64,000 nucleotides of DNA, from positions 80,879-144,878 of the forward strand of contig CAVQDH010000006.1 in NCBI GenBank assembly GCA_963711215.1, given 5' to 3'. Positions within the stretch are counted from its first letter, which is position 1. Each line of letters starts with the position of its first letter. Below, piece after piece: positions 49-55,360 of this stretch. Origin of the DNA: an uncultured Alphaproteobacteria bacterium. GTDB lineage: Bacteria > Pseudomonadota > Alphaproteobacteria > UBA8366. The notes below the pieces were generated by a model. That model was not told where the DNA came from. It made no database searches and saw only the letters and a list, made by a program, of their open reading frames with translations. The position numbers and the translations under genes are program-made.

Positions 49-846
49 CTAGGGCACGGTCTCCGCGATCTCGGCGCAAGTGAGGAAGACGCTGCGCGGC
101 TGCTCCTTGATCAGGCGGAGGAAGCGATCGAGCATGCGCAGCCGCCCCGGATGGCCGATCAGCTGCACATGCAAGGTGAGATGGAAGAAGGCGCCGGGAC
201 GGTCCGCGTAGAGGCCGAGGAATTCCTCGCTCCAGACCTCGTAGGCGGCGGAAGCGGGGCGGGGCATCCGGCCCGCCAGCGCGCCGTCATAGAGAAAATA
301 GGGCGCGTCCGCGAGATGCCACTGCACCGGCAGCTCGACCACGGGCAGCGGCCGGCCGTCGCGGCTATGCCGGTACGGACGGCTCGCGTCGTGGTAGTTC
401 GCCGACACGGTCACGCCGGCCTCGATCAAGAGGTCGAGGGTGTTCTCCGAGAACTCCCAGGACGCCGAGCGCCATGTCGTCGGCCGCTCGCCGGTGATGC
501 GTTCCAGGGCGTCGATGCCGGCGACGAGGTCCTGCTTTTCCTCCGCGCGCGGCTTTCCGACCGCGCTCATATGGCTGTAGGTGTGGCTTGCGATCTCGTG
601 GCCGTGGCGGCGGATCTCCCGCACCGCGTCCGGGTAGCGCTCGGCGGTGACGCCCGGCAGAAAGAAGGTCGAGCGGATGCCGTGCTCGTCGAACAGTCCG
701 AGCAGCGGCGCCAGCCCTTCGCGGATGGCGTAGGCGCCGTTCGACAGCATGACGGGACGGTGCTCGCCCGGGCCGATCTTGTTGAACCAGATGGCCTCCG
801 CATCGAGGCAGGTGCCGATGACGATGGGGAACGGATCGGTGCTCAC
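49..846 (-). CDS. polysaccharide deacetylase family protein (NodB-homology domain)
   Basis: 265-aa ORF. GTG start preceded by GGGAG. FFLPG...RRHGHEIASHTYSH motifs are typical of NodB-type deacetylases. Confidence 0.8.
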   Translation of the reverse strand: MSTDPFPIVIGTCLDAEAIWFNKIGPGEHRPVMLSNGAYAIREGLAPLLGLFDEHGIRSTFFLPGVTAERYPDAVREIRRHGHEIASHTYSHMSAVGKPRAEEKQDLVAGIDALERITGERPTTWRSASWEFSENTLDLLIEAGVTVSANYHDASRPYRHSRDGRPLPVVELPVQWHLADAPYFLYDGALAGRMPRPASAAYEVWSEEFLGLYADRPGAFFHLTLHVQLIGHPGRLRMLDRFLRLIKEQPRSVFLTCAEIAETVP

Positions 847-975
847 AGGAATCTCCCAAGGCGGTGGCCAAAGCGGTGGAATGCCATCGATGATGGCGTG
901 CCCGGAATGCTATCACGGCTTCGCCGCGGCATGCGCGCCGGGCTATAGTCGCAGCCGGGCTTAGCGGGGAGCGGC

Positions 976-1692
976 ATGTACACGACACTGATCACCGGCG
1001 CGAGCAAGGGGATAGGGCTGGTGCTCGCCGAGCGCCTGGCGCGGCAGGGCCATGAGGTCGTCGGCGTCGCGCGCAGCGAGCCGGAGCGCGATTTCCCCGG
1101 CGCCTACTACCGCGTCGACCTGGAAGACAGGGATGCCGCGGTCGCGCGCCTGGGCGAGGTCACGCGGAAGCATGCGATCGACCACCTGGTGAACAACGCC
1201 GGCTATCTCAATCCGAAACCAGTCGAGCAGACCACGCTGCAGGACTTCGAGGACCAGATGACGATCAGCCTGCGCGGGTCGCTGATCTGCGCCAAGGCAT
1301 GCATTCCCAACATGCAGGCGCGCGGCCGCGGCCGCATCGTCAACATCTGCAGCCGCGCCATGCAGGGCCGGGAGGACCGCACGGCCTATGTCGCGGCGAA
1401 GGCCGGTCTCGTCGGCTTCACGCGGGTCTGGGCGCTGGAGCTGGTCGGCAATGGCATTACGGTGAACGTGGTCGCGCCGGGTCCCATCGAAACGGCGCTT
1501 TTCCTGCGCAACCATCCGCCGGGCTCGGAGATCCATCGCCGCATGACGGGCGCCACGCCGATGAAGCGCTTCGGCAAGCCGGAGGAGGTCGCGGCGGCCG
1601 TCGCCTTCTTCCTGTCGGACGAGGCGGCCTTCGTGACCGGGCAGGTGCTCTATGTCTGCGGCGGTCTCAGCCTGGGAAAGCAGCTCTTCTAG
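976..1692 (+). CDS. SDR family NAD(P)-dependent oxidoreductase
   Basis: TGASKGIG Rossmann motif at the N-terminus and a YVAAK catalytic Y-x3-K motif. Length of 238 aa is typical. Confidence 0.9.
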   Translation: MYTTLITGASKGIGLVLAERLARQGHEVVGVARSEPERDFPGAYYRVDLEDRDAAVARLGEVTRKHAIDHLVNNAGYLNPKPVEQTTLQDFEDQMTISLRGSLICAKACIPNMQARGRGRIVNICSRAMQGREDRTAYVAAKAGLVGFTRVWALELVGNGITVNVVAPGPIETALFLRNHPPGSEIHRRMTGATPMKRFGKPEEVAAAVAFFLSDEAAFVTGQVLYVCGGLSLGKQLF

Positions 1693-1773
1693 CGCATCGG
1701 TCTTGCGGTGCGACATGTCGGCGGACGCGTCGTCGAGCAGTATGCGCGCGGTCCGTAAGGAGACGGGCACAGG

Positions 1774-2652
1774 ATGTTCGAGAATTTCAAGAACCGGCAA
1801 GTCGATACCTCGGGCGCGCGGATCAATCTCGTGATCGGCGGCGACGGCCCGCCCTTGCTGCTCCTGCACGGCTATCCGGAAAGCCATGTGATGTGGCATC
1901 GGGTGGCGCCGGCGCTCGCCAAGCATTTCACCGTCGTGGCGCCGGACTTGCGCGGCTATGGCGACAGCTCGAAGCCGCCGTCGGGCGAGAATTTCTGCAA
2001 CTATTCCAAGCGCGCCATGGCGCAGGATCAGGTCGAGGTGATGGCGGCGCTCGGGTTCAAGCGCTTCCGGCTGGCGGGGCACGACCGCGGCGGGCGGGTC
2101 GCCTACCGCCTCGCGCTCGACCATCCGCAAGCGGTCGAGCGGCTGGCCGTGCTCGACATCGTCCCGACCTGGGAGCAGCTCGAGCAGGTGAACATGTCGG
2201 CAGCCTTCGGCAGCTTCCACTGGTACTTCATGGGGCAGGACCCCGGATTTCCGGAGAAGCTCATCGGCGCCGACCCGGAATTCTATCTCCGCTACATGAC
2301 GGACAAATGGGCGGGAGCTTCCAATGCCTTCGCGCCCGAGGCGATGGCGGAATACGTGCGCTGCTTCAAGGATCCGGAGACGATCCGGGCGACCTGCGAC
2401 TGCTACCGGAACAATGCCAGGGCGGATTACGAGAACGATGCCGCCGACCACGCCGCGGGCCGCAAGATCGAATGCCCGGTGCTCGTGCTCTGGGGCGGCG
2501 GCGGGCGGCCGCACAAGGCGCTCGGCGTGATGGATACCTGGCGGCGCTGGGCGTCGGACCTGCGCGGCAGCGGCCTTCCTTGCGGCCATTTCCTGGCCGA
2601 GGAAGCGCCGAAGGAGACGCTGGCCGAACTCATTCCGTTCTTTTCCGCATGA
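1774..2652 (+). CDS. alpha/beta hydrolase (haloacetate dehalogenase / epoxide hydrolase-like)
   Basis: LLLLHGYPESHVMW and GHDRGGRVAYR (Asp nucleophile elbow) motifs. AAGGAG RBS upstream of the ATG. Confidence 0.8.
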   Translation: MFENFKNRQVDTSGARINLVIGGDGPPLLLLHGYPESHVMWHRVAPALAKHFTVVAPDLRGYGDSSKPPSGENFCNYSKRAMAQDQVEVMAALGFKRFRLAGHDRGGRVAYRLALDHPQAVERLAVLDIVPTWEQLEQVNMSAAFGSFHWYFMGQDPGFPEKLIGADPEFYLRYMTDKWAGASNAFAPEAMAEYVRCFKDPETIRATCDCYRNNARADYENDAADHAAGRKIECPVLVLWGGGGRPHKALGVMDTWRRWASDLRGSGLPCGHFLAEEAPKETLAELIPFFSA

Positions 2653-2665
2653 GGCGCCGCGTATC

Positions 2666-3340
2666 ATGATCGCCAGGAAGCGCCGGGTGCGGCGCCGCAA
2701 CAGCGGGGGGGTCGATGTGTTCGGCATCCTCCGGGAGCGCATCTCCAGCCATGCGCTGCCGCCGGGCAGCCGTCTGCGCGAGCAGGATCTGGCGTCCGAG
2801 TTCGACGTGTCGCGCGCCCGTATCCGCGAGGCGTTCGGGGCGCTCGAACAGCGGGGCTTGATCGAGCGCATTCCCAACCGCGGCGCCGTCGTCGTCCGGC
2901 TCGATCCACGGCAGATGTTCGACCTCTACGACGTGCGCCAGGTGCTCGAGGCCTATGTCGCGCGGCTGGCGGCCGAGCGTGCGCCGAAGGGCGCCTGGGA
3001 CGAGCTGATCGCGCGATTTGACGAGCCGCTGGAGAAGGCGCTCGCGGCCGGTAATTTCGAGAGCTATCTCGACTGCCTGGAGGCGTTGCACGCGTGCATG
3101 CTCGAGCATGCGGGCAACAGCATTCTGGCCGACATGCTGGATCTCATCGGCGACAGGACACTGGTGATCTCACGGCGCGTGGTGATCCTGCCGGGCCGCG
3201 CCGAGATCGGGCTCAAGATGCATCGGCGGCTGCTCGCCGCGCTGGCGCGCCGCGACGCGGACGCGTCGGAGACTGAGATGCAGCGCATCCTCAGCAGCGC
3301 CCGCGAATATCTGGAGAAGTACCAGAATTACGTCATCTGA
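2666..3340 (+). CDS. GntR family transcriptional regulator (FadR/FCD subfamily)
   Basis: N-terminal winged HTH (EQDLASEFDVSRARIREAFGALEQRGLIERIPNRGAVV) followed by an all-helical C-terminal domain. Confidence 0.85.
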   Translation: MIARKRRVRRRNSGGVDVFGILRERISSHALPPGSRLREQDLASEFDVSRARIREAFGALEQRGLIERIPNRGAVVVRLDPRQMFDLYDVRQVLEAYVARLAAERAPKGAWDELIARFDEPLEKALAAGNFESYLDCLEALHACMLEHAGNSILADMLDLIGDRTLVISRRVVILPGRAEIGLKMHRRLLAALARRDADASETEMQRILSSAREYLEKYQNYVI

Positions 3341-3520
3341 CGCAGGGTAACAGGCCGCCGCGCATAGGTCGGCTGAAATAGTCTACACGATTGTTGACAA
3401 TATTTCGTGCGCCCGGCAAAGTCGAAGCCGTGCCTCAGCCTGTGTGCACCGAACCCCGCATCTGAACGCCAGAATCCGACAAGCGGGGAGAATTCAGGAA
3501 TCCGGAGGAAGACGTCCGCC

Positions 3521-4756
3521 ATGCCGGCTGCGACGACCGCTGAACCGCTAGAGAAATTCCGTGTCCTCGAGCTCGGGACCATGGTGGCCGGCCCCTTTTG
3601 CGGCCGCATGCTCGCCGATTTCGGCGCCGAGGTGATCAAGGTCGAGATGCCGGCCGGCGACCCGGTGCGCGGCATGGGCAAGCGCGTGGACGGCAAGTCG
3701 CTCTACGCCTCAAGCATTTTCCGCAACAAGCGGATGATCTCCATCGACCTCAGGACCGAGAAGGGGCGCGACCTGGTGCGCGACCTGGTCGGCAAGGTCG
3801 ACGTCCTGATCGAGAATTTCCGCCCCGGCACGATGGAGCGCTGGGGGCTGGGCTACGACGCGCTGGCGCGCCTCAACCCGCGCCTCGTCATGGTCCGGAT
3901 CAGCGGCTTCGGCCAGACCGGGCCTTACAGCATGCGCGCAGGGTATGGGATCATTGGCGAATCCATGAGCGGCCTTCGCCACATCACCGGCGATCCGGAC
4001 CGGCCGCCGACGCGCGTCGCCGTCTCGCTCACCGACTACATCACCGGGCTGCACGCCGCCTATGGCGCCGTCATGGCGCTGCTCAAGCGCCAGGAGACGG
4101 GCAAGGGCCAATGCGTCGACGCGGCGCTGTTCGAAAGCGCCTTCAACTTCATGGAGCCCTATGTCCCGGCCTATGAGAAGCTCGGCTTCATCGCCGGCCG
4201 GACCGGCTCCCGGCTGCCCGACAACACGCCCAACAACCTCTATACCGCGCGCGACGGCCGCCATATCCACATCGCCGCGGTCAGCGAGCCGACCTGGCAG
4301 CGCCTCATGAAGGCGATCGGGCGCGAGGATGCGCTCGCCGATCCGCGCTTCGCGACCCTGACCAGCCGGTCCCAGCATGAAGACGCGATCGACGCGATCA
4401 TCGGCGACTGGACCGCCCGGCACGACCTCGAGGAGATCGATGCGATCCTGCAGGAGGCGGGCGTGCCCGCGTCCCGCATCTTCACCATGGCCGACGTCTT
4501 TTCGGACCCGCATTACGCGGCGCGCGAGATGCTGGTCGACGTGCCGGACGCGGATCTCGGCACCGTTCGCCTCGCCAACGTCGTGCCCAAGCTCTCGGAC
4601 ACGCCGGGCCGGATCGACCATGCCGGCGGCCAGGTAGGGGTCGATACCCGAACTGTCCTTGCGGAAATCGCAGGCCTGACGGATGCCGAGATTTCCGCTC
4701 TCGCGGCCGAGGGTGTTATCTTCTGCGGCGCGCCGGGCCGGCCGGGAATGGAGTGA
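3521..4756 (+). CDS. CaiB/BaiF family III CoA-transferase
   Basis: FRVLELGTMVAGPFCGRMLADFGAEVIKVE N-terminal signature. ATG 3521 with a GGAGGAA RBS is preferred over the ORF-track start at 3407. Confidence 0.85.
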   Translation: MPAATTAEPLEKFRVLELGTMVAGPFCGRMLADFGAEVIKVEMPAGDPVRGMGKRVDGKSLYASSIFRNKRMISIDLRTEKGRDLVRDLVGKVDVLIENFRPGTMERWGLGYDALARLNPRLVMVRISGFGQTGPYSMRAGYGIIGESMSGLRHITGDPDRPPTRVAVSLTDYITGLHAAYGAVMALLKRQETGKGQCVDAALFESAFNFMEPYVPAYEKLGFIAGRTGSRLPDNTPNNLYTARDGRHIHIAAVSEPTWQRLMKAIGREDALADPRFATLTSRSQHEDAIDAIIGDWTARHDLEEIDAILQEAGVPASRIFTMADVFSDPHYAAREMLVDVPDADLGTVRLANVVPKLSDTPGRIDHAGGQVGVDTRTVLAEIAGLTDAEISALAAEGVIFCGAPGRPGME

Positions 4757-4757
4757 C

Positions 4758-6308
4758 ATGGGCTACGAGGATCTCTACCGCGAATATGAAGCGCACCGCG
4801 AGAAGGCGCTCGCCATGGGCGGCAAGGCGAAGCTCGAGCGCCGCCGGAATGCCGGGATTCTGAACGCCCGCGAGCGGCTCGACTACCTGGTGGACAAGGG
4901 GACGTTCCTTGAATCCGGCATGTTCGCGACCTCGGCCAAGCCTGAGGACCGAGCGTCGACGCCGGGCGACGGCAAGCTCTGCGGCTATGGCCGGATCGAC
5001 GGGCGCGAGGCGGTGGTGATTGCCAACGACTTCACGGTCAAGGGCGCGTCCTCGGCCGGAACCAACATGAAGAAGATCGGGCAGATGCAGCGCACAGCGA
5101 CCGAGCGTGGCCTGCCGCTGGTCTTCCTCGGCGAGAGCTCGGGCGCCCGCATTCCCGACAATATGGGCGCGCTCGGCATGGGCAATCTGCTGGCGAACAA
5201 CGCGACGCAGTACCGGCGACTGCGCGAATCGCCCTGGGCGTCGGCGGTGCTCGGCATGTGCTACGGCTCGTCCACCTGGTACACCTGCATGTCCGATTTC
5301 AGCGTCATGCGGAAAGGCGCGGTCATGGCGGTTTCCAGCGAGCGGCTGGTGTCCATGGCGATCGGCGAGAAGATCGACGGCGAGGCGCTCGGCGGCTGGA
5401 AGATGCATGCGGAAACGACCGGCCTGATCGACCAGTTCGTCGACACCGACGAAGAAGCGATCGACGCCGTCAAGACCTTCCTCGCCTACCTGCCGGGCCA
5501 TTGCAACGAAGCACCGCCGGTCGCAGCAGTGCCGAAAGGATCGGATGCGCCGGTGAAGAACGTCGCCGCGCTGGTGCCGGAAAGCCGCACGCAGGTCTAC
5601 GACATGCGCAAGGTGATCCAGGCCGTCGTCGATGCCGGCAGCTATTTCGAGCTGAAGCCCCGCTTCGGCCGCACCGCGGTCACCGCGCTGACCCGCGTTG
5701 GTGGGCGCAGCGTCGGCTTCATCGCCAACAATCCGCTGTTCAAGGCGGGCGCGATGGATGCGCAGGCCTGCGACAAGATCGTCAGCTTCATGGTGCTGTG
5801 CGATTCGTTCAACATCCCGCTCGTGTTCTTCGTCGACAACCCGGGCTTCGTGATCGGCATCGATGCCGAGCGGCAGCGCGCGCCGGGCAAGATCATCAAT
5901 TTCATGAATGCGCTGCAGCTGGTCACCGTGCCGAAGCTCACGGTGATGATCCGCAAGAATTACGGCCAGGCCTACATCAACATGGGCGGCGGCAAGAACG
6001 CCGACGACGTCTGCGCCTGGGTCAGCGCCGAGGTCAGCTTCATGGACCCGGCTTTCGCCGTGAACGTGGTGCACGGCCGGGAAGGGCAGCGCCTCGAAGT
6101 GGACGACCCGGCGCTCTTCAAGGCCGCCTATGAGAAGATCCAGCAGGAAAACAGCGTCTGGGACCTCGCCGCCTGCTACGCGGTGCAGCAGGTCATCAAG
6201 CCGGACGAAACCCGCGACTGGCTGTTGCGCATGTTGCAGGTGCACGAACGGCGCCTTACCGGCGGCGTCGGCCGGCACCTGCTCAGCAACTGGCCGACCA
6301 GCTACTGA
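4758..6308 (+). CDS. acyl-CoA carboxylase carboxyltransferase subunit (PccB/AccD-like), copy 1
   Basis: Full-length two-domain CT, 516 aa (ANDFTVKGASSAG, FFVDNPGFVIG motifs). The ATG overlaps the upstream stop (GTGACATG). Confidence 0.85.
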   Translation: MGYEDLYREYEAHREKALAMGGKAKLERRRNAGILNARERLDYLVDKGTFLESGMFATSAKPEDRASTPGDGKLCGYGRIDGREAVVIANDFTVKGASSAGTNMKKIGQMQRTATERGLPLVFLGESSGARIPDNMGALGMGNLLANNATQYRRLRESPWASAVLGMCYGSSTWYTCMSDFSVMRKGAVMAVSSERLVSMAIGEKIDGEALGGWKMHAETTGLIDQFVDTDEEAIDAVKTFLAYLPGHCNEAPPVAAVPKGSDAPVKNVAALVPESRTQVYDMRKVIQAVVDAGSYFELKPRFGRTAVTALTRVGGRSVGFIANNPLFKAGAMDAQACDKIVSFMVLCDSFNIPLVFFVDNPGFVIGIDAERQRAPGKIINFMNALQLVTVPKLTVMIRKNYGQAYINMGGGKNADDVCAWVSAEVSFMDPAFAVNVVHGREGQRLEVDDPALFKAAYEKIQQENSVWDLAACYAVQQVIKPDETRDWLLRMLQVHERRLTGGVGRHLLSNWPTSY

Positions 6309-6324
6309 ATACTGAAAGAGGAAA

Positions 6325-7665
6325 ATGTTCGACAAGGTTCTGATTGCCAATCGTGGCGCCGTCGCGGCGCGCGTTCTTCGCAGCCTGAAGGCGCTCGGCA
6401 TTCGCTCGGCCGCCGTCTATTCCGAGGCGGATGCCGCCGCGCCTTATCTCGAGGAGGCCGACGAGACCTACGCCATCGGCCCCGCCCATCCGCGCGAGAG
6501 CTATTTGAACCAGGATGTCCTGATCGACGTCCTGAAGAAATCCGGCGCCGATGCGGTGCATCCCGGCTATGGCTTCCTGGCGGAAAATCCCGATTTCGCC
6601 GAGCGCGTCGCAGCGGCGGGCGCAACCTTCATCGGGCCGTCGCCGCGCTGGATCTCGGCAATGGGGCACAAGACCCGGGCGCGCGACCTGGTCTCCCGGC
6701 ACGGGCTCAAGATCGGCGGCGGGTCGCGCGTACTGGCGATGGACGAGGACCCGGTCGCGGAGGCGCGCCAGCTGGGCTTCCCCGTGCTGATCAAGCCCGC
6801 GGCGGGCGGCGGCGGCATCGGCATGCTGCCGGCGCGCGACGAGGAAGAGCTGGTCAAGGCGATCAAGCGCGCCCGCTCGATGGCCGAGCGCGGCTTCGGC
6901 AACGGCGAGGTCTATCTCGAGCGGCTGATCGACCGGCCGCGGCACGTCGAGTTCCAGATCCTCGGCGACCAGCACGGCGACGCCTGCCACGTCTTCGAGC
7001 GCGACTGCTCGGTGCAGCGCCGCCACCAGAAGATCATCGAGGAAGCGCCCGCGCCCGGCCTGTCGCGCGACTTCGCCGAAGGCCTGGCCGATCAGATCGC
7101 CGGCACGATGAAGTCGCTCGGCTATGACAACATCGGCACGGTGGAGATGCTGATGGCGCCGGACGGCTCGGTCAGCTTCCTCGAGGTCAACACGCGGCTC
7201 CAGGTCGAGCACGGCGTTACCGAAGAAATCACCGGCGTCGATCTGGTCGCTTCGCAGATCCGTTCGGCGGCGGGGGAGAAGCTCGCCGACATCCTGCCGC
7301 AAAAGCCCGTCATCGACGGCCACGCGATCCAGGTCCGGGTCTACGCGGAGGACCCGAAAACCTTCTTCCCGTCACCCGGCAAGCTGGAGGTCTTCCGGCC
7401 GCCCTACGACAAATCGATCCGCATCGATACCGGCTACAAGGAAGGACAGGACGTAACGCCCTTCTACGATCCCATGCTGGCCAAGGTGATCGTCCAGGCG
7501 GGCTCGCGCGACAAGGCGATCGAGCGGCTGCTCGAAGCGCTTGCCGAATTCGACGTTCGCGGCGTAAAGACCAATATCCCGGCCCTCGTCGCGCTGCTCG
7601 GCTCCGAGCCGTTCCGCGCAGGCGACGTTCATACCGGGCTGACAAAATCCGTCATCGCGGGATAA
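6325..7665 (+). CDS. biotin carboxylase (stand-alone ATP-grasp subunit)
   Basis: MFDKVLIANRGAVAARVLRS start, GGGGIGM loop and EVNTRLQVEH motif. 446 aa with no fused BCCP. Confidence 0.9.
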   Translation: MFDKVLIANRGAVAARVLRSLKALGIRSAAVYSEADAAAPYLEEADETYAIGPAHPRESYLNQDVLIDVLKKSGADAVHPGYGFLAENPDFAERVAAAGATFIGPSPRWISAMGHKTRARDLVSRHGLKIGGGSRVLAMDEDPVAEARQLGFPVLIKPAAGGGGIGMLPARDEEELVKAIKRARSMAERGFGNGEVYLERLIDRPRHVEFQILGDQHGDACHVFERDCSVQRRHQKIIEEAPAPGLSRDFAEGLADQIAGTMKSLGYDNIGTVEMLMAPDGSVSFLEVNTRLQVEHGVTEEITGVDLVASQIRSAAGEKLADILPQKPVIDGHAIQVRVYAEDPKTFFPSPGKLEVFRPPYDKSIRIDTGYKEGQDVTPFYDPMLAKVIVQAGSRDKAIERLLEALAEFDVRGVKTNIPALVALLGSEPFRAGDVHTGLTKSVIAG

Positions 7666-7696
7666 CCGCAAATCATCAGGAGCTCGAAAGAAAACA

Positions 7697-7918
7697 ATGG
7701 CACGCGAAGAGATTCAGTCGGAAGTCACCGGCACGGTGTGGAAAATCGAAATGAAGGTCGGCGACGCGGTTTCCGACGGCGATACGATCATGATCCTCGA
7801 ATCGATGAAGATGGAGATTCCGGTGATCTCCACCGAGGACGGCACGCTGGTCGAGATCCTGGTGAAGGAAGAGCAGCCGGTTTCCGAGGGCCAGGCGGTC
7901 GCGGTCATCGAGACCTGA
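7697..7918 (+). CDS. biotin carboxyl carrier protein (minimal biotinyl domain)
   Basis: 73 aa with an ESMKMEIPV biotinyl-lysine motif. Confidence 0.85.
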   Translation: MAREEIQSEVTGTVWKIEMKVGDAVSDGDTIMILESMKMEIPVISTEDGTLVEILVKEEQPVSEGQAVAVIET

Positions 7919-7952
7919 TGAAGCGGCCGGCCGGTCCGCCGAGGCAATCCGC

Positions 7953-9515
7953 ATGAGCACCAAGACGCCGATCGAGGAGCTGGAGCAGCGCCGCCGCTGG
8001 GCGGAAGAGCAGGGTGGCGCGGACAACGTCGAGCGCCAGCACGGCCAGGGGCGCCTGACGGTCCGCGAGCGCATCGGCGGCCTCGTCGATACCGGCTCCT
8101 TCCAGGAAGTCGGCAAGCTGACCGGCAGCGAGAGCTATGACGGCCTGACGCTCAAGCACGTGACGCCGGCGCCCTATGTCATGGGGCTGGCGGAGATCGG
8201 CGGCCGTCCGGTTGCCGTGGGCGGCGAGGATTTTACCGTCCGCGGCGGTACCACGGCAGCCCTCGACAAGCGCAAAGGCGGGCAGGGCGGCTTCGTCGAG
8301 GACATGGCCCATCACTACCGCATCCCGCTGGTCAACCTGATCGACGGCGCGGGCGGCAGCGTCACTTCGGCCAAGCGCCGCGGCCACGCGGTCTTCCCGG
8401 GCGTCGACAGCTTCGATCGGTCGGTCGACCTGCTGGCCGAGGTGCCGGTGGTCAGCGCCGTGCTCGGCTCCGCGGCCGGCGGCCCGGCGGGGCGGGCGAT
8501 CCTGTCGCACTGGTCGGTCATGGTGAAGGACACGAGCCAGATCTTCGCCGCGGGGCCGGCGGTGGTCGAGCGTTCGCTGGGACAGAAGATCACGAAGGAA
8601 GACCTTGGCGGCCCGGCCGTCGCCGTGGACAAGGCCGGCGCGATCGACAATGTCGCGGAGTCCGAGGAGCACTGCTTCGCGCTGGTCCGGCAATTCCTGA
8701 GCTATATGCCGCAGAATGTCTGGGAGCTGCCGCCGGTGGCCGCTTGCTACGATCCGGCCGACCGTTGCGAGGACGCGCTGCTGTCGATCGTGCCGGAGCA
8801 GCGCCGCCGCGCTTACGACATGCGCCGGCTGATCGGCCTGATCGTCGACAAGGGCTCGATGTTCGAGATCCAGCCGACCTTCGGCAAGGCGCTGATCACC
8901 TGTCTCGCGCGGCTGAACGGGCATCCGGTCGGGATCGTCGCAAACAATCCGATGGTCTATGGCGGCGCGATGGACGGCCCGGCGGCACGCAAGCAGGTCC
9001 GCTTCGTCGAGCTGTGCGACATGTTCCATATCCCGCTCGTGTTCCTGGTCGACGTGCCGGGTTTCATGGTGGGGCTGCAGGCGGAGCAGGCGGGCGTGCT
9101 GCGTGACGGCATGCGCGCGGTCTATGTCGCGTCGCGGGCGACGGTGCCCGTGGTCACGGTGGTGATCCGCAAATGCTACGGCATGGCGGGTATGGCGACC
9201 TGCCACAAGCGCGGGCTCGAGTTTCGCGTCGCGTGGCCCTCGGCCGAGTGGGGCTCGCTGCCGGTCGAGGGCGGCGTTGCGGTCGCCTTCCGCCGCGAGA
9301 TCGCCAACGCGGCCGACCCGAAGAAGCGCGAGCAGGAGCTGGAGGAGGAGCTGCGCGCCTATGGCTCCCCCATGCGTACCGCGGCGGCCTTCGGCGTCGA
9401 GGACATGCTCGATCCCCGCGAGACGCGGCCCTATCTCTGCCGCTTCGTGGCGCTCGCGCAGTCGCGGCTCAAGACCGAGCTCGGACCGAAGTTCAAGGCA
9501 GGCGTTCGGCCGTAG
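7953..9515 (+). CDS. acyl-CoA carboxylase carboxyltransferase subunit (PccB/AccD-like), copy 2
   Basis: 520 aa, paralogous to but clearly divergent from copy 1 (GEDFTVRGGT, FLVDVPGFMVG motifs). Confidence 0.85.
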   Translation: MSTKTPIEELEQRRRWAEEQGGADNVERQHGQGRLTVRERIGGLVDTGSFQEVGKLTGSESYDGLTLKHVTPAPYVMGLAEIGGRPVAVGGEDFTVRGGTTAALDKRKGGQGGFVEDMAHHYRIPLVNLIDGAGGSVTSAKRRGHAVFPGVDSFDRSVDLLAEVPVVSAVLGSAAGGPAGRAILSHWSVMVKDTSQIFAAGPAVVERSLGQKITKEDLGGPAVAVDKAGAIDNVAESEEHCFALVRQFLSYMPQNVWELPPVAACYDPADRCEDALLSIVPEQRRRAYDMRRLIGLIVDKGSMFEIQPTFGKALITCLARLNGHPVGIVANNPMVYGGAMDGPAARKQVRFVELCDMFHIPLVFLVDVPGFMVGLQAEQAGVLRDGMRAVYVASRATVPVVTVVIRKCYGMAGMATCHKRGLEFRVAWPSAEWGSLPVEGGVAVAFRREIANAADPKKREQELEEELRAYGSPMRTAAAFGVEDMLDPRETRPYLCRFVALAQSRLKTELGPKFKAGVRP

Positions 9516-9664
9516 AATTTCGCCGCGCCCGATGGCAGTGTCGCGCGCGCTGCCTCCTGTTTCGACAGGCTCAACATGAGGCTTCTATGTTTGTGCCTCA
9601 TCCTTGTAACTTTGAATGCTCTGGATCGAGTAGTGTTTCCGGAGCGGTGATGGATGCGCGGCCG

Positions 9665-10639
9665 CTACTTGACCGCGGCCGTCTTGCCCGTTTCCGCCGA
9701 TTTGACGATCGCCTCGAACACCGCGATGCCGTGGATGGCCTCGTCGTTCGGCAGCGGGTAGGGCGCTTTCCCGGCAACCGCCGCGGCGAAGGCCTCAAGC
9801 TCCGCCCGCTCCTTGTCGAAGCGCGGATACTCGGTGTGCTCCGGATCGCCCTGGATCGGCCGGAAGGTGAAGGAGCGCTCGTTACGGATCTCGACCGTGC
9901 CCTTGGTGCCGAAGACCTCGATACGCTGCGTTGGCGTCGTTGCGGCAAGTGTGGCGAGATAGCCGGTCATCCCGTTCTGGAAGCGGAACAGCATCGAGGT
10001 GGTGTCGTCCAGGTCGATGGCGATCGCGCGGCGGATGCTGATCGCGCGGACGTCGGCCAGCGGGCCGAACAGGTTGATCGCCATGTCGACCATGTGGATG
10101 CCCATGGCGCCCATGCCGCCGGCCGGGCTCTCTTCGCGGTTGGCCCGCCAGTTGTCCGGCCGGAAGCTCAGCCCGCTGGAGCCCGAATGGTTCAATTCGG
10201 CGTGCAGGATCGTGCCGAGCGCGCCCGCCTTCAGCCGTGATTTGAGCTCGAGCACGGCCGGCAGGAAGCGCCGGTTGTGTCCGAGCGCGAGCACGACGCC
10301 CGCCTTGTCGGCGGCAGCGACCGATTTCGCGGCGCTGGCTTTCGTCAGGGTGAACGGCTTCTCCACGAAGATATGCTTGCCGGCCTTGGACGCCGCGACG
10401 ATCTGGTCCGCATGCTGCTGGTGCGGGGTCGCGAGGACGACCGCATCGATCGACGGGTCCTTCAGCATGGCGGCGTAGTCGCTGCCGAGCGAAAGCCCGT
10501 GCTTCTTGGTGAAATCGGCGGCTTTGGCCGGCGTGCGCGTAATCCCCGCGGTGAATTGGATCGCGTCGCTCTTTCCCTGAACGGACTCGACCAGGACCTG
10601 ACCCCAACGGCCGAGCCCGACAATGGCGGCTTTCAGCAT
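9665..10639 (-). CDS. Gfo/Idh/MocA family oxidoreductase
   Basis: MLKAAIVGLGRWG Rossmann N-terminus and an EKP motif (FVEKPFT). 324 aa. Confidence 0.85.
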   Translation of the reverse strand: MLKAAIVGLGRWGQVLVESVQGKSDAIQFTAGITRTPAKAADFTKKHGLSLGSDYAAMLKDPSIDAVVLATPHQQHADQIVAASKAGKHIFVEKPFTLTKASAAKSVAAADKAGVVLALGHNRRFLPAVLELKSRLKAGALGTILHAELNHSGSSGLSFRPDNWRANREESPAGGMGAMGIHMVDMAINLFGPLADVRAISIRRAIAIDLDDTTSMLFRFQNGMTGYLATLAATTPTQRIEVFGTKGTVEIRNERSFTFRPIQGDPEHTEYPRFDKERAELEAFAAAVAGKAPYPLPNDEAIHGIAVFEAIVKSAETGKTAAVK

Positions 10640-10784
10640 GCGCTTCCCCGTGATGATTGGTTCGGTGGCGGATGTGCCCTGAGGCGGGCCACACTATCGC
10701 GCGTAAGAAAACGGCCGGCAAGAGCGCCGGCCGCCGGAAAGATCTTCCCGCGCGTCGCGCGCGGCCTGTCGGTCGGGCGCGGCG

Positions 10785-11414
10785 TCAGCCTTCGGATGCG
10801 CTGGACAGCTTCGTCACCTTATCGCGAAGCATGCCGATCAGCCCGTCGACGCCATGGCGCCGGAGGATGGACTCGAACTCGGACCGCTGCGTGATCGCCA
10901 TGCTGACGCCCTCGACGTAGATGTCGATGATCTTGTAGCGGTCGCCTTCCTGCCGGACGCGCCAGTTGGCATCGAATCCGTCGCCGCCGGACTTGCTGAT
11001 CCGGGTATAGACGATGACGTCATGTTTTCCTGCCGGCGTGGATTTGAGCACATGGAATTGTTCGCCGGAATAGCCGCCGAGGCGCACCGAGTAGGTCTTC
11101 AACACCCATTCGCTGAACAGCTTCTGGTAGGTGTCCTTCTGGGCGGAATTCATCTGCCGCCAGTAGGAGCCGGCCACGAAGCGCGCGATCTGCTCCATCG
11201 CGAAATCGTTCCGCAGAAGATCGCGGAAACGCTCTTCGCGGTCACGCAGCGATCCGTTCGGCGAGGACAGAACCTGGATCGCCTGGGTCGCCAGATGCTC
11301 GATGAAATTGCCGGGGTCGCCAGGCGCGGCCTGCGACTGTGCGGTTGCGGTCTGAGCTAATGAAAGCCCGAGAACCAGCGCTACCGCATGAAAGATGCGA
11401 CGTTTGCTCATCAT
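10785..11414 (-). CDS. MlaC/Ttg2D family phospholipid-binding periplasmic protein
   Basis: Signal peptide MMSKRRIFHAVALVLGLSLAQTATA. Body resembles Ttg2D/MlaC (FVAGSYWRQ..., YKIIDIYVEGVSM). Start moved to the internal ATG. Confidence 0.7.
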   Translation of the reverse strand: MMSKRRIFHAVALVLGLSLAQTATAQSQAAPGDPGNFIEHLATQAIQVLSSPNGSLRDREERFRDLLRNDFAMEQIARFVAGSYWRQMNSAQKDTYQKLFSEWVLKTYSVRLGGYSGEQFHVLKSTPAGKHDVIVYTRISKSGGDGFDANWRVRQEGDRYKIIDIYVEGVSMAITQRSEFESILRRHGVDGLIGMLRDKVTKLSSASEG

Positions 11415-21845: not shown

Positions 21846-22794
21846 CTACCGTCCCGCCGCAGCGCGGCGGAGACGGTCGTTGATCGCGCGGCCGAGGCCC
21901 TGATCGGGGATCGGGGCCACGGCGATGCCGGTGAATTCCGGCCGATCCAATGCATGCAGGTAAGCGAACAGGTTGGCCGCGGCCTCGATGAGGTCGGCGG
22001 CCTCGCTTAGGTTGAGCGTGGCATCGGTTGCGCCGGGCCCGAAGCCCAGCAGCGCTTCGCCGGGCCGGGCATGCGCGGCATCGCGCCGCACGGGCAGGGA
22101 CGGGGCGTAATGGCTCGTCAGCATGCCGGGCGAGCGGGGCGCATGGTCGTCCGCGCCGGCGACGCTCACGGAGACGCCGAGCGCGGCTTCGATCTCTTCC
22201 TGCGGCAGGCCGCCCTGCCGGAGGATGGCCGGCGCCGCGCCGGAAACATCGAGCACCGTCGAATTCCAGGCCGATCGGACAGGGGCCGCCATCGAGGATG
22301 AGGGCGACCCGATCGCCCAGATCCTGCGCCACATGCCGGGCCGTCGTCGGGCTGAGGCGGCCCGACCGGTTGGCGCTGGGGGCGGCGACCGGCACGCCTG
22401 CGGCCCGCAGCAGCCACTGCGCGTCGGCATGGGCCGGGACGCGCACCGCGACGGTGTCGAGGCCGGCGCTCGCCAGAAGCGATAGCCGGCAATCCGGCCG
22501 CCGGGGCAGGACCAGCGTCAACGCGCCGGGCCAGAAGCGGTCGGCCAGCAATCCGGCCGTTTCATTGAAGGCGACGAAGGCCTCGGCCGCCGTGCGGTCG
22601 GGGACATGCACGATCAGCGGGTTGAAGCTGGGACGGCCCTTGGCGGCGAAGATTTCGGCCACCGCCCGGTCGTTCGTGGCGTCCCCGCCGAGGCCATAGA
22701 CCGTTTCGGTCGGAAAGGCGACGAGCTCGCCCCGGCGCAGCGCGGCGGCGGCCAATGCGATTGTTTCCCCGGAAATTGGCGAAATCTTTACCAT
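21846..22794 (-). pseudogene. sua5: L-threonylcarbamoyladenylate synthase (Sua5/TsaC2 type), frameshifted as sequenced
   Basis: YrdC domain (VAFPTETVYGLGGDA...SANRSG) runs to ...ILDGGPCPIGLE. The Sua5 C-domain (STVLDVSGAAPAILRQG...) continues in another frame. Extra T in GAATTC at 22261-22266. Confidence 0.85.
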
Positions 22795-22904
22795 TGCGGT
22801 GCCTTACATGGGTGTGCAGGCTGATGCAAGGCATCTCCGCAGCATGGGGATTGCCGGAATCGTCGCTGCACTGCACAATGCCGTGACGTGGATTGGGGGT
22901 GGCA

Positions 22905-28990: not shown

Positions 28991-30217
28991 TCAGCCTCGT
29001 CCGGCTTCGGGCGTCTCGATATGCTCGGGCCGGACGCCGAGGCCGATCAGCCGGCCGGGAATATTGCGCAGCAGGGGAAAGGCGTCGAACAGCCGCATGA
29101 ACAGCGGCGGCTTCGGCTCGTCCGTTTCGCTCAGAACTTCGGAGATCACCCGGTTCTGGATCATCAGCTGCAGGCGCTGGGTGACACGGGTGGGCCATTT
29201 GCGGCGGCGCTCCACGAAGCCGAGGTCCTCCACGTCGACACGGCCCTCGGCCAGCGGCGCGGCCAGCAGGTTGGCCGCGGCGACGGCATCCTGGACTGCG
29301 AGGTTGATGCCGACGCCGCCGACCGGCGACATGGCATGCGCCGCATCGCCGATGCAGAGGAAGCCGGGCCGGCACCATTCCTCCAGCCGGTTCACCTGCA
29401 CCGTCAGCAGGCTGACCGCATCCCAGCCCGACAGCTTCTGCAGGCCGTCCGCCAGGGCCGGGGCATGGCGGGCGATACGGCGGCGGAATTCGTCGAAGCC
29501 CTGGCGCCGGATCCTTTCATGCGTACCCTTGGGGATGACATAGCCGCACTGCCAATAGTCGCCGCGGTCGATCGCGATGAGGATGAAGCCGGAGCCGAAC
29601 CGGCCGAGCGGCTGATCGGGCTGCGCCGGGCCGCGCTCGACCCGGAACCAGAGGACGTCCATCGGCGCGCCCAGATCCCGGACCTGCAGTCCCGATTGCG
29701 GGCGCAGCGTCGAGTGCCGTCCGTCCGCGGCGACCGTGAGCGCGGCCGTGATCTCGATCGCGCCTTCGGCGGTCTTGGCGCGCACGCCGGTGACGATGCC
29801 GTCGCTTTCGATGAGCTCGGTCGCCTCGCAGCCCATCATGAGCCGGAAGGACGGGTAGGCCGCCGCGTGGCGCGCGAGAAAATTGAGGAAATCCCATTGC
29901 GGCATGAAGGCGATGAAGCCGCATTCGGTCGGCAGGTACTCGAAATCGGCGATGGTCAGCGTGCGCGACCCGAACACCGCCTGGATGCTGCGGAGCTTCT
30001 GATGCGGCAAGGCCAGCAGGTCCGGCAGAAGCCCCAGCTCATGGATCAGCTCCAGGGTCGACGGATGGATCGTGTCGCCGCGGAAATCCCGCAGGAAATC
30101 ACGGTGTTTCTCCAGCACCAGCACATCGACCCCCGCCCGCGCCAGCAGGAAGCCCAGCATCATGCCGGCGGGCCCGCCGCCGGCGATGCAGCATGTCGTG
30201 GAAATCGTCTCGGCCAT
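28991..30217 (-). CDS. FAD-dependent monooxygenase (UbiH/aromatic-ring hydroxylase-like)
   Basis: CCIAGGGPAGMMLGFLLARAG dinucleotide-binding motif and GDAAHAMSPVGGVGIN motif. Only the 3' 1.2 kb of the 790-aa ORF is real. Confidence 0.85.
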   Translation of the reverse strand: MAETISTTCCIAGGGPAGMMLGFLLARAGVDVLVLEKHRDFLRDFRGDTIHPSTLELIHELGLLPDLLALPHQKLRSIQAVFGSRTLTIADFEYLPTECGFIAFMPQWDFLNFLARHAAAYPSFRLMMGCEATELIESDGIVTGVRAKTAEGAIEITAALTVAADGRHSTLRPQSGLQVRDLGAPMDVLWFRVERGPAQPDQPLGRFGSGFILIAIDRGDYWQCGYVIPKGTHERIRRQGFDEFRRRIARHAPALADGLQKLSGWDAVSLLTVQVNRLEEWCRPGFLCIGDAAHAMSPVGGVGINLAVQDAVAAANLLAAPLAEGRVDVEDLGFVERRRKWPTRVTQRLQLMIQNRVISEVLSETDEPKPPLFMRLFDAFPLLRNIPGRLIGLGVRPEHIETPEAGRG

Positions 30218-52449: not shown

Positions 52450-52670
52450 ATGTCAGCCATCATGCATCACAAGGCCACTGACGATTGCTCTCACGATCGG
52501 CCTGGTCGCGGCCTCGGCGGGCGCGTATCCGCTCGAGCGGATCGTCAGCCGGCAAGCTGCCGATTTTCCAGAGCGCGTCGGTCACCGACACGGCGACCGA
52601 CGATCAGGGGCCGGCCTATGTCGGGACGACCCCGCTGATCGGAAACGGCGACTTGGAAGACGACTTCTAG
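52450..52670 (+). pseudogene. possible small secreted protein readable only through two frame shifts
   Basis: GGAAGGAG RBS and ATG 52450. The signal-like LTIALTIGLVAASAGA is in frame +1. The GC3-rich tail GKLPIFQSASVTDTATDDQGPAYVGTTPLIGNGDLEDDF is in frame +2. Confidence 0.3.
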
Positions 52671-52738
52671 AAACGCCAATGCGTTCCTGGTCCGATCGTC
52701 TTCCGAAGCTTCAATGCCGATAAATCCGGCGGCCCCGC

Positions 52739-54770
52739 TCACAGCCCCACGACGTGGCGCGGGCGGCCCCAGTCTTGCGCTTCCTTCGCCGCGCGGGGCA
52801 CGTCCTCTTCCAGCATGAGCCGTTCCGCGACCAGCCGCTTCGCGGCCGCGACGATCGCCGCGACGTAGCCCTCCGGCGATCCGTACCGCTCCAGCACCGA
52901 CTTGCGCGGGTCTTCCGTGAACGCACGCTCCTCGGCTGAGTCCGGGAAGGGGATGTAGCTGCCGTTGAACTCGTATCCCGCGCGCGTGCCGTAACCGCGC
53001 GCCCGCAGGCTCCAGCCGGTATAGGTGCCGAGCGGCGCCTGCACCATCGGCGCACGGACGCCCGCGATATCGTTGCCGTCGGCATCCGTCGCCGGGATCT
53101 GCACGACATAGCCATCCGGGTTCAGCACTGCCGGCGGCTCCTTCGACAGGATGCCGCGCTCGACGTCGGGGCCATGGTCGAGCAGCGGCAGCGCCGCCGG
53201 GCCGGCCGAGATCATCTGCCCGGGGATGCGCGGGATATTTCTCGCGCCATTCGATGTAGGTCGCGAGCGTGCCGTCCTTGCGCATCGGGATGCGGGAGTC
53301 GGGCGGCGGCGTGCCGTCGGTGATCCAGGCGTCCATGGCGTCGAGCAAGCGCGCGGAACAGCATCGAGGTGCTGACGATGTTGCTGAAGTTCTGGCAGAT
53401 GCCCTTGTTCGGCACGGTCCGCAGCGGGCTCGACATGTGCTGCGAGCTGGACCAGAGATAGCAGCGCACGTTTGCCGGCTGGGGCAGATCGTTGCCCTGG
53501 GTGTCGGTGTGCACGAGCGAGCCGCGCCGCTGCCAGTATTCCGTCGCGCTCTGGCTGTGCAGGACATGCGGATCGGTCTCCGGCCGCTTCAGGATGGCGT
53601 CCGTCTTGCCGGTCAGGTGGTCGGTCGACTCCGCATAGGAGAAGGGGAAGCGGTCGGCGAGGATGTAGTGGTCCTCGTACTGCTGCCCGGCCATCGAGAC
53701 GGCATTGGCGAAGCGGTGATTGAGCCACATCTGCCCGCACCGGCGACATGCGGCATCACGCCGTCGAACACCTTGCGGCCTGCCGCGTCCGCGTTGAAGC
53801 CGAGATAGACGAAGTCACGGATGCAGCGGCCCGTCTGCGAGCGGCCCCAGCCGTAGGCCTTCTCGACCGGCGCCAGCGGGTTGGCGTTGCCGGCCGCGTC
53901 CTTGCCGCCGTATTTGAGGAAGCTGACGAGGTCGCGCACCGCGACATGGCCGAGCCCCATGACCAGCGGGTCGCGGCCTTCGTAGACCAGCTCGTAGATC
54001 CAGCCCGGCTGGAAGCCCTTCGCCATGTAGACGAAGCTGTCGGACGGCATGATCGCCGTTTCGTCGGCGCCGCGGTTATGGCTCTCGCCCGTCACCGCCG
54101 CGCCGCTCAGCACCTGCGCGAACTGCCACTCGGTCCGGCGGGATCGGGGATGCGCGTCGTTGTGCGGGTAGCGACGCTTGGTCAGCCGCGCCTTCGTGGT
54201 GTCGAGCGAGACGGCGGGGTGGCTGCGCGTGCCGGCGCGGCCCGAGAGCGGGAAGCAGAGCGTCGGCGCCACGGGCGTGAACTCCTGGCGCACCGGGCCG
54301 GTAATCGGCTTGCCGTTGTCGGTCGCGACGGGAAGCTTCATCGTCACGCGGTTGTTGCCCGGCAGCAGGTCGCCCTGCCAGGCGCCCCAGACGAAGCTGT
54401 AGCCGCGGCGGAACAGGAAGCCGTTGCCCGCATGCTCCAGCGCCTTCGGATCGTTCGAGGCGCGCGCGTCGTTGAAGAACTGTAGCGCGCGCAGGTTGCC
54501 GCGGTTGCCATAGTCGAAGAAGACGCGGCGGTTGCCCTTGGCCTTGTCCGCCGGGCGCAGCATCAGGAAGTCGGCAGTGAACTCGACCAGGCCGTCCTTG
54601 TTGACGGGCGCCTTGTCGATATCGGTGACGGCGGCCTGGGCGGCGGCCTTCGGGTCGACCGCGTAAAGCGCGCGGCCGCGCAGGCGCTCATAGGCGCCGG
54701 TGTCGCCGAACGCATGGCCGTCGGCGAAGGATGTGCATTCTGCGATTTCGAGAGTGATCTTGCTGGGCAC
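52739..54770 (-). pseudogene. alpha/beta-hydrolase-domain protein (Abhydrolase_10-like), three frameshifts as sequenced
   Basis: Readable across four frames: ...GRKVFDGVMPHVAGAG | QMWLNHRFANAV...MLFRAL | LDAMDAWITDGTPPP...EKYPA | IPGQMISAGP...HVVGL. Junctions near 53733, 53347 and 53229. GTG start at 54770 after GAAGGA. Confidence 0.6.
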
Positions 54771-54902
54771 GGCATCGGTCCTTCGTGCGAGGGGGCGGGA
54801 TCGGGGCAGCCCAGTATGGCACATTCTTCGCGGCGGTCAGCCTTCGCAGCGGACAGCCGGTCCGGTTATCATGATCGGATAAGGAACCGCAGCGAGGCAG
54901 GC

Positions 54903-55352
54903 ATGGTAACGGGCAAAGACATCATCGGGTCGTGGCTCATGGTCGACCGGGGTACCGACAGCGAGGCGGACCGGCAGCAGGCGCGCGTCCGCTACGGCGA
55001 CGATCCGAAGGGGTTCATGATCTTCGCGCCCGACGGCTGGATGAACGCCATCGTCTGCTGGGGCGGGCGGCCCGCGCTCTCCGGGTCGCCGGACTGGCAT
55101 TCCGATGCCCCGGATAACGAAAAGATCCGCGCGTTCGACACCTACCTATCCTATGGCGGCCGCTGGACGGTCGAGGACAGCGTGCTGACTACGCAGGTGG
55201 AATTCGCGCTCAACCCCGGCTGGGTCGGCGGCAAGCAGGTTCGCCGGCTCGAGATGACGGACGACGGCTATCTCATCCTCAAGCTGTCGCGCGCCTGGCC
55301 GGACGGCCGCGTCATGAACGGCTGGGTGCGCTGGAAGCGGGTGCCGGCGTAA
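54903..55352 (+). CDS. lipocalin-like domain protein
   Basis: 149 aa. The IIGSWLMV...FDTYLSYGGRWTV pattern resembles the bacterial lipocalin-like family. ATG 54903. Confidence 0.5.
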   Translation: MVTGKDIIGSWLMVDRGTDSEADRQQARVRYGDDPKGFMIFAPDGWMNAIVCWGGRPALSGSPDWHSDAPDNEKIRAFDTYLSYGGRWTVEDSVLTTQVEFALNPGWVGGKQVRRLEMTDDGYLILKLSRAWPDGRVMNGWVRWKRVPA

Positions 55353-55360
55353 GACTTGGC

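Follow-up and report, generated by a model that had tools for sequence, protein, structure and literature searches.

A conserved proteobacterial operon predicted to encode a four-protein biotin-dependent acyl-CoA carboxylase with two carboxyltransferase subfamilies

Introduction

Why would a bacterium keep two different carboxyltransferases (CTs) beside one biotin carboxylase (BC), and what would such a system carboxylate? This question is raised by six genes at positions 2666-9515 of a 64,000-nucleotide stretch, hereafter the window, from an uncultured alphaproteobacterium (contig CAVQDH010000006.1 of assembly GCA_963711215.1). All six lie on the + strand and encode a GntR regulator, a family III (CaiB/BaiF) CoA-transferase (CoAT), a first carboxyltransferase (CT1), a stand-alone BC, a biotin carboxyl carrier protein (termed BCCP) and a second carboxyltransferase (CT2). 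A preliminary description, made from the DNA letters alone, had proposed these six identities, and open reading frames and domain profiles bear out every one of them, as well as the unusual make-up it had pointed to, namely a separate BC, a minimal BCCP and two divergent full-length CTs resembling the beta subunit of propionyl-CoA carboxylase (PCC). To our knowledge, biotin-dependent carboxylases form a small and well-mapped class, in which a single CT type is thought to be the rule outside mycolic-acid bacteria.

We find that the gene set recurs across Alpha- and Betaproteobacteria and that each CT belongs to a subfamily with its own invariant active-site loops. We propose, with moderate confidence, that the locus is an operon, inducible by a substrate, whose product is an acyl-CoA carboxylase that depends on ATP and biotin and is built from four separate proteins, including two co-inherited CT subfamilies.

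Results

Conservation of the gene set

One genome per species was scanned for relatives of CT1, and at least 578 species loci encode one. The best 80 of these come from Alpha- and Betaproteobacteria. Carriers include Xanthobacter tagetidis, Paraburkholderia phymatum, Burkholderia sp. S171, Polynucleobacter nymphae, Ottowia, Parapusillimonas granuli and marine Rhodospirillaceae, and the closest CT1 relative, 91% identical, is found in an alphaproteobacterial metagenome-assembled genome. A tblastn search with the proteins of the window recovered the order GntR-CoAT-CT1-(BC)-BCCP-CT2 in most related loci. Counts were restricted to those with no less than 5 kb of sequence upstream and 6 kb downstream, 44 in number, referred to below as full-flank loci. 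CT2 and BCCP each accompany CT1 in 39 of these 44 loci, the CoA-transferase in 37, GntR in 34 and BC in 27, and all five partners are present together in 24. The commonest arrangement has an intact BC between CT1 and BCCP. The gene set is far beyond a chance neighbourhood, and the survey of orthologous clusters that the preliminary description had proposed thereby yields a module recurring in two proteobacterial classes.

The arrangement is not uniform. The loci L083:8025-14883 (Polynucleobacter nymphae), L056 and L062 show GntR-CoAT-CT1-BC-BCCP-TctC, with no CT2 within 10 kb, and in Polynucleobacter TctC is followed by a 243-residue protein with no Pfam or NCBIfam match. Three further loci, L047 (titled Leptospira interrogans LS0056), L033 (uncultured Streptomycetaceae) and L034 (uncultured Firmicutes), have a betaproteobacterial gene order and 63-65% CT1 identity, and these assemblies are likely contaminated or mis-binned.

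Two carboxyltransferase subfamilies

CT1 (516 residues, 4758-6308, + strand) and CT2 (520 residues, 7953-9515, + strand) each contain both crotonase-like halves, the Pfam Carboxyl_trans domain spanning residues 30-497 in CT1 (3.3e-97) and 29-507 in CT2 (2.2e-101). The two proteins are 34% identical over their full length. CT1 is 34-35% and CT2 35-36% identical to PccB of Streptomyces coelicolor and to 1vrg of Thermotoga maritima; the identity between CT1 and CT2 is no higher than that of either with canonical PCC-beta. Compared with solved structures, both score 240-326 bits against the PCC-beta/MmdA/12S group, 135-190 bits against MCC and GCC beta subunits, and 70-94 bits against GcdA. The sole matching NCBIfam model, TIGR01117 (mmdA/PCC-type), gives 336 bits for CT1 and 365 bits for CT2, under its cut-off of 998.8.

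We aligned 87 CT1-type and 70 CT2-type sequences with PccB, whose numbering is used here. The acyl oxyanion loop residues G182-G183 of PccB correspond to G-S in all 87 CT1-type sequences, and to G-G in 68 of the 70 CT2-type sequences. The biotin loop G418-G419-A420-Y421-D422 becomes G-Q-A-Y-(L/I) in the CT1 family and G-M-A-G-M in the CT2 family, the residue equivalent to D422 being I in CT1 and M in CT2 of the window. S187 of PccB is replaced by Y in CT1 and by an invariant R in CT2, and D192 is D in CT1 and an invariant H in CT2. The motif Y-G-Q-A-Y-(L/I)-N-M at positions 417-424 is essentially invariant within the CT1 family, as are A-G-G-P-A-G-R at 181-187 and C-Y-G-M-A-G-M at 416-422 within the CT2 family, at overall orthologue identities of 60-94%. 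Since the loops of each family are invariant, neither CT looks like a dead copy; a degenerate paralogue was the outcome that the preliminary description had named as fatal to its proposal, and a relaxed pattern appears in neither family. CT1 and CT2 are probably both catalytic.

Paralogous clusters on plasmid pBB2 of Cupriavidus necator N-1 and on a Variovorax plasmid again contain one CT1-type protein (58%) and one CT2-type protein (67% or 45%). The pairing is therefore old and was co-inherited as the whole module duplicated. On plasmid 3 of Variovorax sp. PBL-E5 (L085:1-14800), two paralogous sets of CT, CT, CoA-transferase, TctC and BCCP stand in tandem, which indicates that the whole module duplicates as a unit.

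We also observe that the C-terminus of CT1, residues 499-516 (consensus ...GGxGxHLLxNWPTSY), extends beyond the Pfam domain, with H507, W512, P513 and T514 invariant in 11 diverse orthologues. This could be a docking motif.

Biotin carboxylase and BCCP

The BC (446 residues, 6325-7665, + strand) consists of the three BC domains only (Biotin_carb_N, CPSase_L_D2 and Biotin_carb_C, residues 1-439), without a BT or BCCP domain. It scores 507 bits against NF006367, and its translation contains the catalytic motifs RRHQKIIEEAP, EVNTRLQVEHGVTE and QVRVYAEDP, in which RRHQK, EVNTRLQVEH and the Arg of the last motif can be read. The BCCP (73 residues, 7697-7918, + strand) is recognized by Pfam Biotin_lipoyl (6.1e-16) and by NCBIfam NF004547 (76.9 versus a cut-off of 75), and it carries the biotinylation motif ESMKMEIPV with the M-K-M site. 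Across about 60 related loci the carrier steadily has 73 residues and the same motif, whether a BC is nearby or not.

CoA-transferase

The CoAT (411 residues, 3521-4756, + strand, Pfam CoA_transf_3 1.2e-127) covers positions 1-365 of the 366 in the profile and therefore has the full-length fold, in common with the succinyl-CoA:mesaconate, succinate-glutarate and formyl-CoA:oxalate CoA-transferases of family III. It nevertheless misses the equivalog cut-offs of the characterised family III enzymes by a wide margin: all seven matched NCBIfam models remain below threshold, with at most 267 bits against cut-offs of 413-750. The best scores are those for succinate-glutarate (266.6 bits, cut-off 750) and succinyl-CoA:mesaconate (242 bits) CoA-transferases, and the closest solved structure, 4ed9, is an uncharacterised protein. 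A DYITG motif, spotted by eye, lies at the expected position of the catalytic Asp.

Regulator and predicted operator

The GntR/FCD regulator (FadR subfamily, 2666-3340, + strand) has an N-terminal winged helix-turn-helix domain and a C-terminal FCD domain, both of which exceed the Pfam cut-offs (GntR 1.3e-15, FCD 3.2e-21). It reaches none of the NCBIfam equivalog cut-offs, and the PDB codes of its closest structure led to no paper. A gntR orthologue adjoins the CoA-transferase gene in 34 of the 44 full-flank loci, and the GntR/FCD protein is likely the repressor of the operon.

A candidate operator/promoter region, with no strand assigned, occupies positions 3379-3400. Its palindromic core TTGTTGACAA, at 3391-3400, is present as a single copy within the 64-kb window and doubles as a possible -35 box (TTGACA); 12 bp 5' of it is a second, degenerate site, TAGTCTACAC. 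Related loci, 1.32 Mb in all, contain 30 exact copies of the 10-mer versus 0.7 expected, spread over 23 loci. It is enriched about 40-fold beside gntR, nearly all copies lying just 5' of gntR or between gntR and the CoA-transferase gene. The six closest relatives keep ATTGTTGACAAT and the second site 12 bp upstream, although the 5' region around them has diverged. In more distant loci, where gntR abuts the CoA-transferase gene, the 10-mer or its reverse complement stands 5' of gntR, and two copies 12 bp apart are often seen. A looser T-GT-N-AC-A pattern is seen in 29 of 53 upstream regions, versus 4% of background windows, and TTGTTGACAA fits what we take to be the FadR-subfamily consensus, TNGTNNNACNA. 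There is thus good comparative evidence for predicting TTGTTGACAA as a family-specific GntR/FadR-type operator, and the operator candidate first picked out at 3390-3401 is supported by the conservation of its core beside gntR.

Extra copies of the 10-mer occur within or 3' of the carboxylase genes, away from gntR (L029:5445, L030:13346, L068:11162 and L077:12762), and may be additional regulatory sites before transporter genes.

Operon layout

The six open reading frames are all intact. We placed the start of CoAT at ATG 3521 because an identical database protein, P0241, starts with MPAATT, and the gap between gntR and CoAT is therefore 180 nt. The stop codon of CoAT (TGA, 4754-4756) and the start codon of CT1 (ATG, 4758) are separated by 1 nt, with a GGAG within the 3' end of CoAT. 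The remaining gaps are 16 nt (CT1-BC), 31 nt (BC-BCCP) and 34 nt (BCCP-CT2), and purine-rich Shine-Dalgarno-like stretches lie 5' of the starts that follow them. These measurements revise the layout of the preliminary description in part: the stop/start overlap it placed at 4754-4760 is replaced by the single intervening nucleotide, and its range of 16-35 nt for the other gaps is right for three of them but not for that between gntR and CoAT. It had also contrasted the six intact genes with many broken ones elsewhere in the window, of which the first half stands, whereas a rough gene map based on GC content at third codon positions (GC3) indicates dense, seemingly intact coding over the full 64 kb. 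Coding gaps longer than 400 nt are few on this map (about 22430-22888, 29543-30072, 52670-53613 and 54824-55361), and widespread pseudogenisation is not obvious from it.

A terminator-like GC-rich hairpin with a T-rich tail (9534-9563, + strand; 8-bp stem with 5 GC pairs, a consensus match only) is likely the end of the operon. The next gene in the 3' direction, encoding a GFO/IDH/MocA oxidoreductase (9665-10639), is on the opposite strand. Rfam returned no RNA element within 800-10800, and a promoter-consensus scan was uninformative (1 match versus 1.4 expected).

The SDR (976-1692) and alpha/beta-hydrolase (1774-2652) genes upstream of gntR were considered as members of the module and rejected: they are kept in the nearest clade only and are absent from the 91% relative (L001). 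In the close relatives L002-L006 (3200-7900), an ADP-forming acyl-CoA synthetase gene lies between the SDR and alpha/beta-hydrolase genes, and an RmlA-like nucleotidyltransferase gene precedes gntR. Both genes are missing in the window (compared over 976-2652), which suggests local deletions or rearrangement.

Neighbouring genes and possible substrates

Uptake systems are the only genes often found beside the core. In about 29 betaproteobacterial loci, genes for a NitT/TauT-type ABC transporter and its NMT1/SsuA-like binding protein follow CT2 directly on the 3' side, and TctC receptors are found in about 18 loci. Searches of PDB and NCBIfam with the NMT1/SsuA-like protein gave weak sulfonate- and nitrate-family matches only, from which the transported substrate cannot be read.

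Other accessory genes are confined to particular lineages. In some loci of marine Rhodospirillaceae the CoA-transferase is not nearby and an ADP-forming acyl-CoA synthetase is present, which supports the order acid, acyl-CoA, carboxylation; one such synthetase locus has, in addition, two divergent CoA-transferase genes about 3.5 kb downstream. In one betaproteobacterial group, a PrpB-like lyase and a genuine AcnA aconitase (1213 bits, cut-off 945) are encoded between CT1 and CT2, and the group also has extra genes of the PEP-mutase/ICL family and a MaoC-like hydratase, while BC and BCCP are lacking. In loci of this lineage (L020, L026, L033, L038 and L088, for example L038:7850-17620), AcnA, one or two PrpB/ICL-family lyases and TctC are inserted between the two CT genes, and neither BC nor BCCP occurs within 10 kb. 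In two marine lineages, genes of the PrpD family lie at the flanks of the cluster, and a paralogue on a Sulfitobacter plasmid stands beside genes for MaoC, a CoA-ester lyase, BioY, BC and BCCP. Xanthobacter and some other loci add an Xsc-like thiamine diphosphate (ThDP) enzyme, a GarD/UxaA-family dehydratase and a GMC oxidoreductase. A marine alphaproteobacterial contig has hydantoinase A/B-type genes (L087:1211-4962) a few kb 5' of a CT1-BCCP-CT2 core, and an arylsulfotransferase/PQQ_2-like gene (L087:13410-14498) after CT2. None of the accessory genes of the related loci adjoins the operon of the window.

Taken together, these contexts point weakly to two leading guesses for the substrate, a short acid related to di- or tricarboxylates (the C5 acids mesaconate, citraconate and itaconate, with aconitate grouped beside them) or an acid of the propionate type. 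More remotely, the substrate might be a sulfonated acid.

Discussion

Proposed mechanism

In the mechanism we favour, the GntR/FCD repressor would sit on TTGTTGACAA before the CoA-transferase gene until an organic-acid effector frees the DNA. The CoA-transferase would then turn the incoming carboxylic acid into its CoA thioester, with succinyl-CoA, acetyl-CoA or the pathway's own product as the CoA donor, and so supply the carboxylase with acyl-CoA. BC would carboxylate the biotin on the free 73-residue BCCP, and carboxy-BCCP would hand its CO2 to the CTs, where most likely the alpha-carbon of the acyl-CoA is carboxylated, as in PCC. By analogy with the long-chain acyl-CoA carboxylase of mycobacteria (LCC), CT1 and CT2 would each have their own active sites and acyl-CoA, and they may associate in one mixed hexamer or form two separate hexamers that share one pool of carboxy-BCCP. 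With a free 73-residue carrier, no BT domain and no AccE-like gene within the operon, the sequence forces no single complex. We dropped the idea of hybrid CT1:CT2 active sites, since those of LCC sit at homodimer interfaces.

Several observations weigh against this mechanism. CT2 is missing from some loci that have CT1, 17 of the 44 full-flank loci (about 40%) show no BC within 10 kb, and the AcnA-carrying lineage lacks BCCP too. The second glycine of the biotin oxyanion loop (G419 of PccB) is replaced in both CTs, by Q in CT1 and by M in CT2, and CT1 has S in place of G183 as well. No transporter or downstream enzyme adjoins the operon in the window, and the context hints are lineage-specific and point several ways, to tricarboxylate, propionate and sulfonate-like genes. 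Finally, synteny is the sole basis on which we infer that the six genes are co-transcribed as an operon, that the CoA-transferase feeds the carboxylase and that CT1 and CT2 associate.

Alternative explanations

The plainest alternative is ordinary propionate or acetate assimilation, in which CoAT would make propionyl- or acetyl-CoA from succinyl-CoA as donor and a divergent PCC or acetyl-CoA carboxylase (ACC) would lead through (methyl)malonyl-CoA to central metabolism. PCC-beta-type enzymes are indeed nearest to both CTs, no pathway-specific downstream enzyme is kept in the cluster, and families of the methylcitrate-cycle type (PrpB-like, AcnA and PrpD) recur nearby. The CT1 family has L or I at the position of D422, and in the specificity of PccB and AccB a residue of this type goes with acceptance of acetyl-CoA. 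Nevertheless, the CTs fall far under the mmdA/PCC-type cut-off (336 and 365 versus 999 bits), their active-site loops are invariant in each family and unlike those of canonical PCC and ACC, and the paired CTs, the dedicated GntR and the TctC or sulfonate-type transporter would be left unexplained; we regard this explanation as unlikely. Decarboxylation in the manner of MmdA or GcdA, acting on a carboxy-acyl-CoA that CoAT makes from an imported di- or tricarboxylic acid, would suit the betaproteobacterial lineage that has CoAT, CT1, CT2, TctC, AcnA and a PrpB-like lyase without BC or BCCP. However, BC and BCCP are intact in the window and a membrane decarboxylase beta subunit is found in none of the loci examined, which leaves this alternative very improbable.

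Two other alternatives assign different roles to the CTs. BCCP could carry a carboxyl group from the donor of one CT to the acceptor of the other, as an acyl-CoA:acyl-CoA transcarboxylase for which BC would be optional, serving net carboxylation. The most conserved core, CT1, the 73-residue BCCP and CT2, fits such an exchange, as 39 of the 44 full-flank loci keep BCCP and 17 lack BC within 10 kb, and two CT active sites with a small free carrier recall the logic of the 12S, 5S and 1.3S components in Propionibacterium. Against it stand the intact BC between CT1 and BCCP, separated by gaps of 16 and 31 nt in the window and present in the commonest arrangement, and the fact that a housekeeping AccC could serve genomes without a clustered BC; moreover, we know of no transcarboxylase with two Carboxyl_trans-type CTs. 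In our estimate this explanation has a low probability. It is about equally doubtful that only one CT is catalytic and the other a structural or regulatory partner in a mixed hexamer. The canonical glycine pairs are altered at two positions in CT1 and at one in CT2, and the loci with CT1 alone suggest that it can act without CT2, but the substituted loops are invariant over 87 and 70 sequences at an overall orthologue identity of 60-94%, which argues that the active-site region itself is under selection. Since oxyanion holes are formed by backbone amides, changes of side chain need not inactivate the enzyme.

A bolder reading, to which we assign a small probability, is that the core of CT1, CT2 and free BCCP is a hitherto unrecognised sort of biotin enzyme, either an acyl-CoA:acyl-CoA transcarboxylase with an optional BC or a carboxylase acting on a branched, unsaturated C5 dicarboxylyl-CoA of the mesaconyl- or citraconyl-CoA type and giving aconityl-CoA. 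If aconityl-CoA were the product, the family III transferase would pass CoA back to the next substrate molecule. This would be a CO2-fixing route from C5-dicarboxylates to the tricarboxylic acid (TCA) cycle, and it would account for the AcnA, PrpB/ICL-like lyase and PrpD-family genes in or beside related clusters.

Significance

The inducible carboxylase that we favour joins two ancient, co-inherited CT subfamilies, a dedicated CoA-transferase, a minimal BCCP that stands free and a BC that is optional, and hundreds of species of Alpha- and Betaproteobacteria carry its genes, some of them from lineages abundant in fresh water and the sea. If this reading is true, the system would be an uncharacterised branch of the carboxylase class and an unassigned step in the environmental turnover of organic acids, possibly a CO2-consuming one. 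The conserved predicted operator and its likely repressor offer a direct experimental handle on the inducing substrate, and genetics is feasible in carriers available in culture, for instance Paraburkholderia phymatum, Xanthobacter tagetidis, Polynucleobacter nymphae, Ottowia and Parapusillimonas granuli.

Comparison with known systems

The preliminary description allowed that this gene set might prove to be an already characterised pathway. No characterised counterpart appears in the literature searched, outside which most subscription journals lie, and the source names of 360 homologues of CT1, CT2 and CoA-transferase are all generic. A Variovorax isoprene paper was considered as a counterpart and set aside, its PCC cluster being unrelated. 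The sole two-CT carboxylase in that literature is the mycobacterial LCC.

The canonical PCC, MCC and GCC share with the system an ATP-grasp BC, a biotinyl carrier and a double-crotonase CT, and both CTs are nearest to PCC-beta. These enzymes are, however, alpha6beta6 assemblies with a fused BC-BT-BCCP alpha chain and one type of beta subunit, whereas the window encodes two beta types and neither a fused alpha chain nor a BT domain. In addition, D422 of PccB is replaced by L/I in CT1 and by M in CT2, G419 is replaced in both, and both CTs lie far below the TIGR01117 cut-off.

The transcarboxylase of Propionibacterium consists of 12S, 5S and 1.3S components, without BC, and its 5S component is of the pyruvate-carboxylase (HMGL-like) type. 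Its 12S component (PDB 1on3) is homologous to CT1 and CT2, and CO2 passes between its two different CT components by way of a small, free biotin carrier, a set-up that CT1, BCCP and CT2 recall. In contrast, the window has an intact BC, and both of its transferases are of the Carboxyl_trans type, which 5S is not.

The crenarchaeal acetyl/propionyl-CoA carboxylase, with separate AccC, AccB and PccB proteins, serves autotrophic CO2 fixation. It resembles the system in its separate BC and BCCP and its unsplit PCC-beta-like CT, but it has a single type of CT, its BCCP is longer at about 165 residues, and its autotrophic role differs from that suggested by a GntR-controlled operon with a CoA-transferase.

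In the mycobacterial LCC, the core is AccD4(2)AccD5(4), and the homodimer interfaces of either CT type bind an acyl-CoA of its own. The LCC structures show that a single core can hold homodimers of two CT types, each with its own substrate, and that BC modules can be shared between CT cores. The likeness lies in two different full-length PCC-beta-like CTs, which in the window are co-encoded and co-inherited with the one BC system that would serve them. The analogy drawn in the preliminary description therefore holds for the presence of two CT types, as architecture only, and fails for the fused alpha chain, the AccE tether and any kinship with AccD4 and AccD5. AccA3 is a fused BC-BCCP, whereas BC (446 residues) and BCCP (73 residues) are separate genes here; the gaps of 1, 16, 31 and 34 nt within the operon are too short for a gene encoding an AccE-like tether; and CT1 and CT2 score 219-254 bits against AccD4/AccD5 (9t97), lower than against 1vrg (292-326 bits), PccB or 12S. 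The system of the window is, moreover, proteobacterial, and its operon includes a CoA-transferase and a GntR regulator.

As judged from its predicted proteins, the system thus departs from the defining features of the mycobacterial LCC, of canonical PCC and of the Propionibacterium transcarboxylase, while its domains, a BC, a BCCP and CTs of the Carboxyl_trans type, place it within the class of biotin-dependent acyl-CoA carboxylases.

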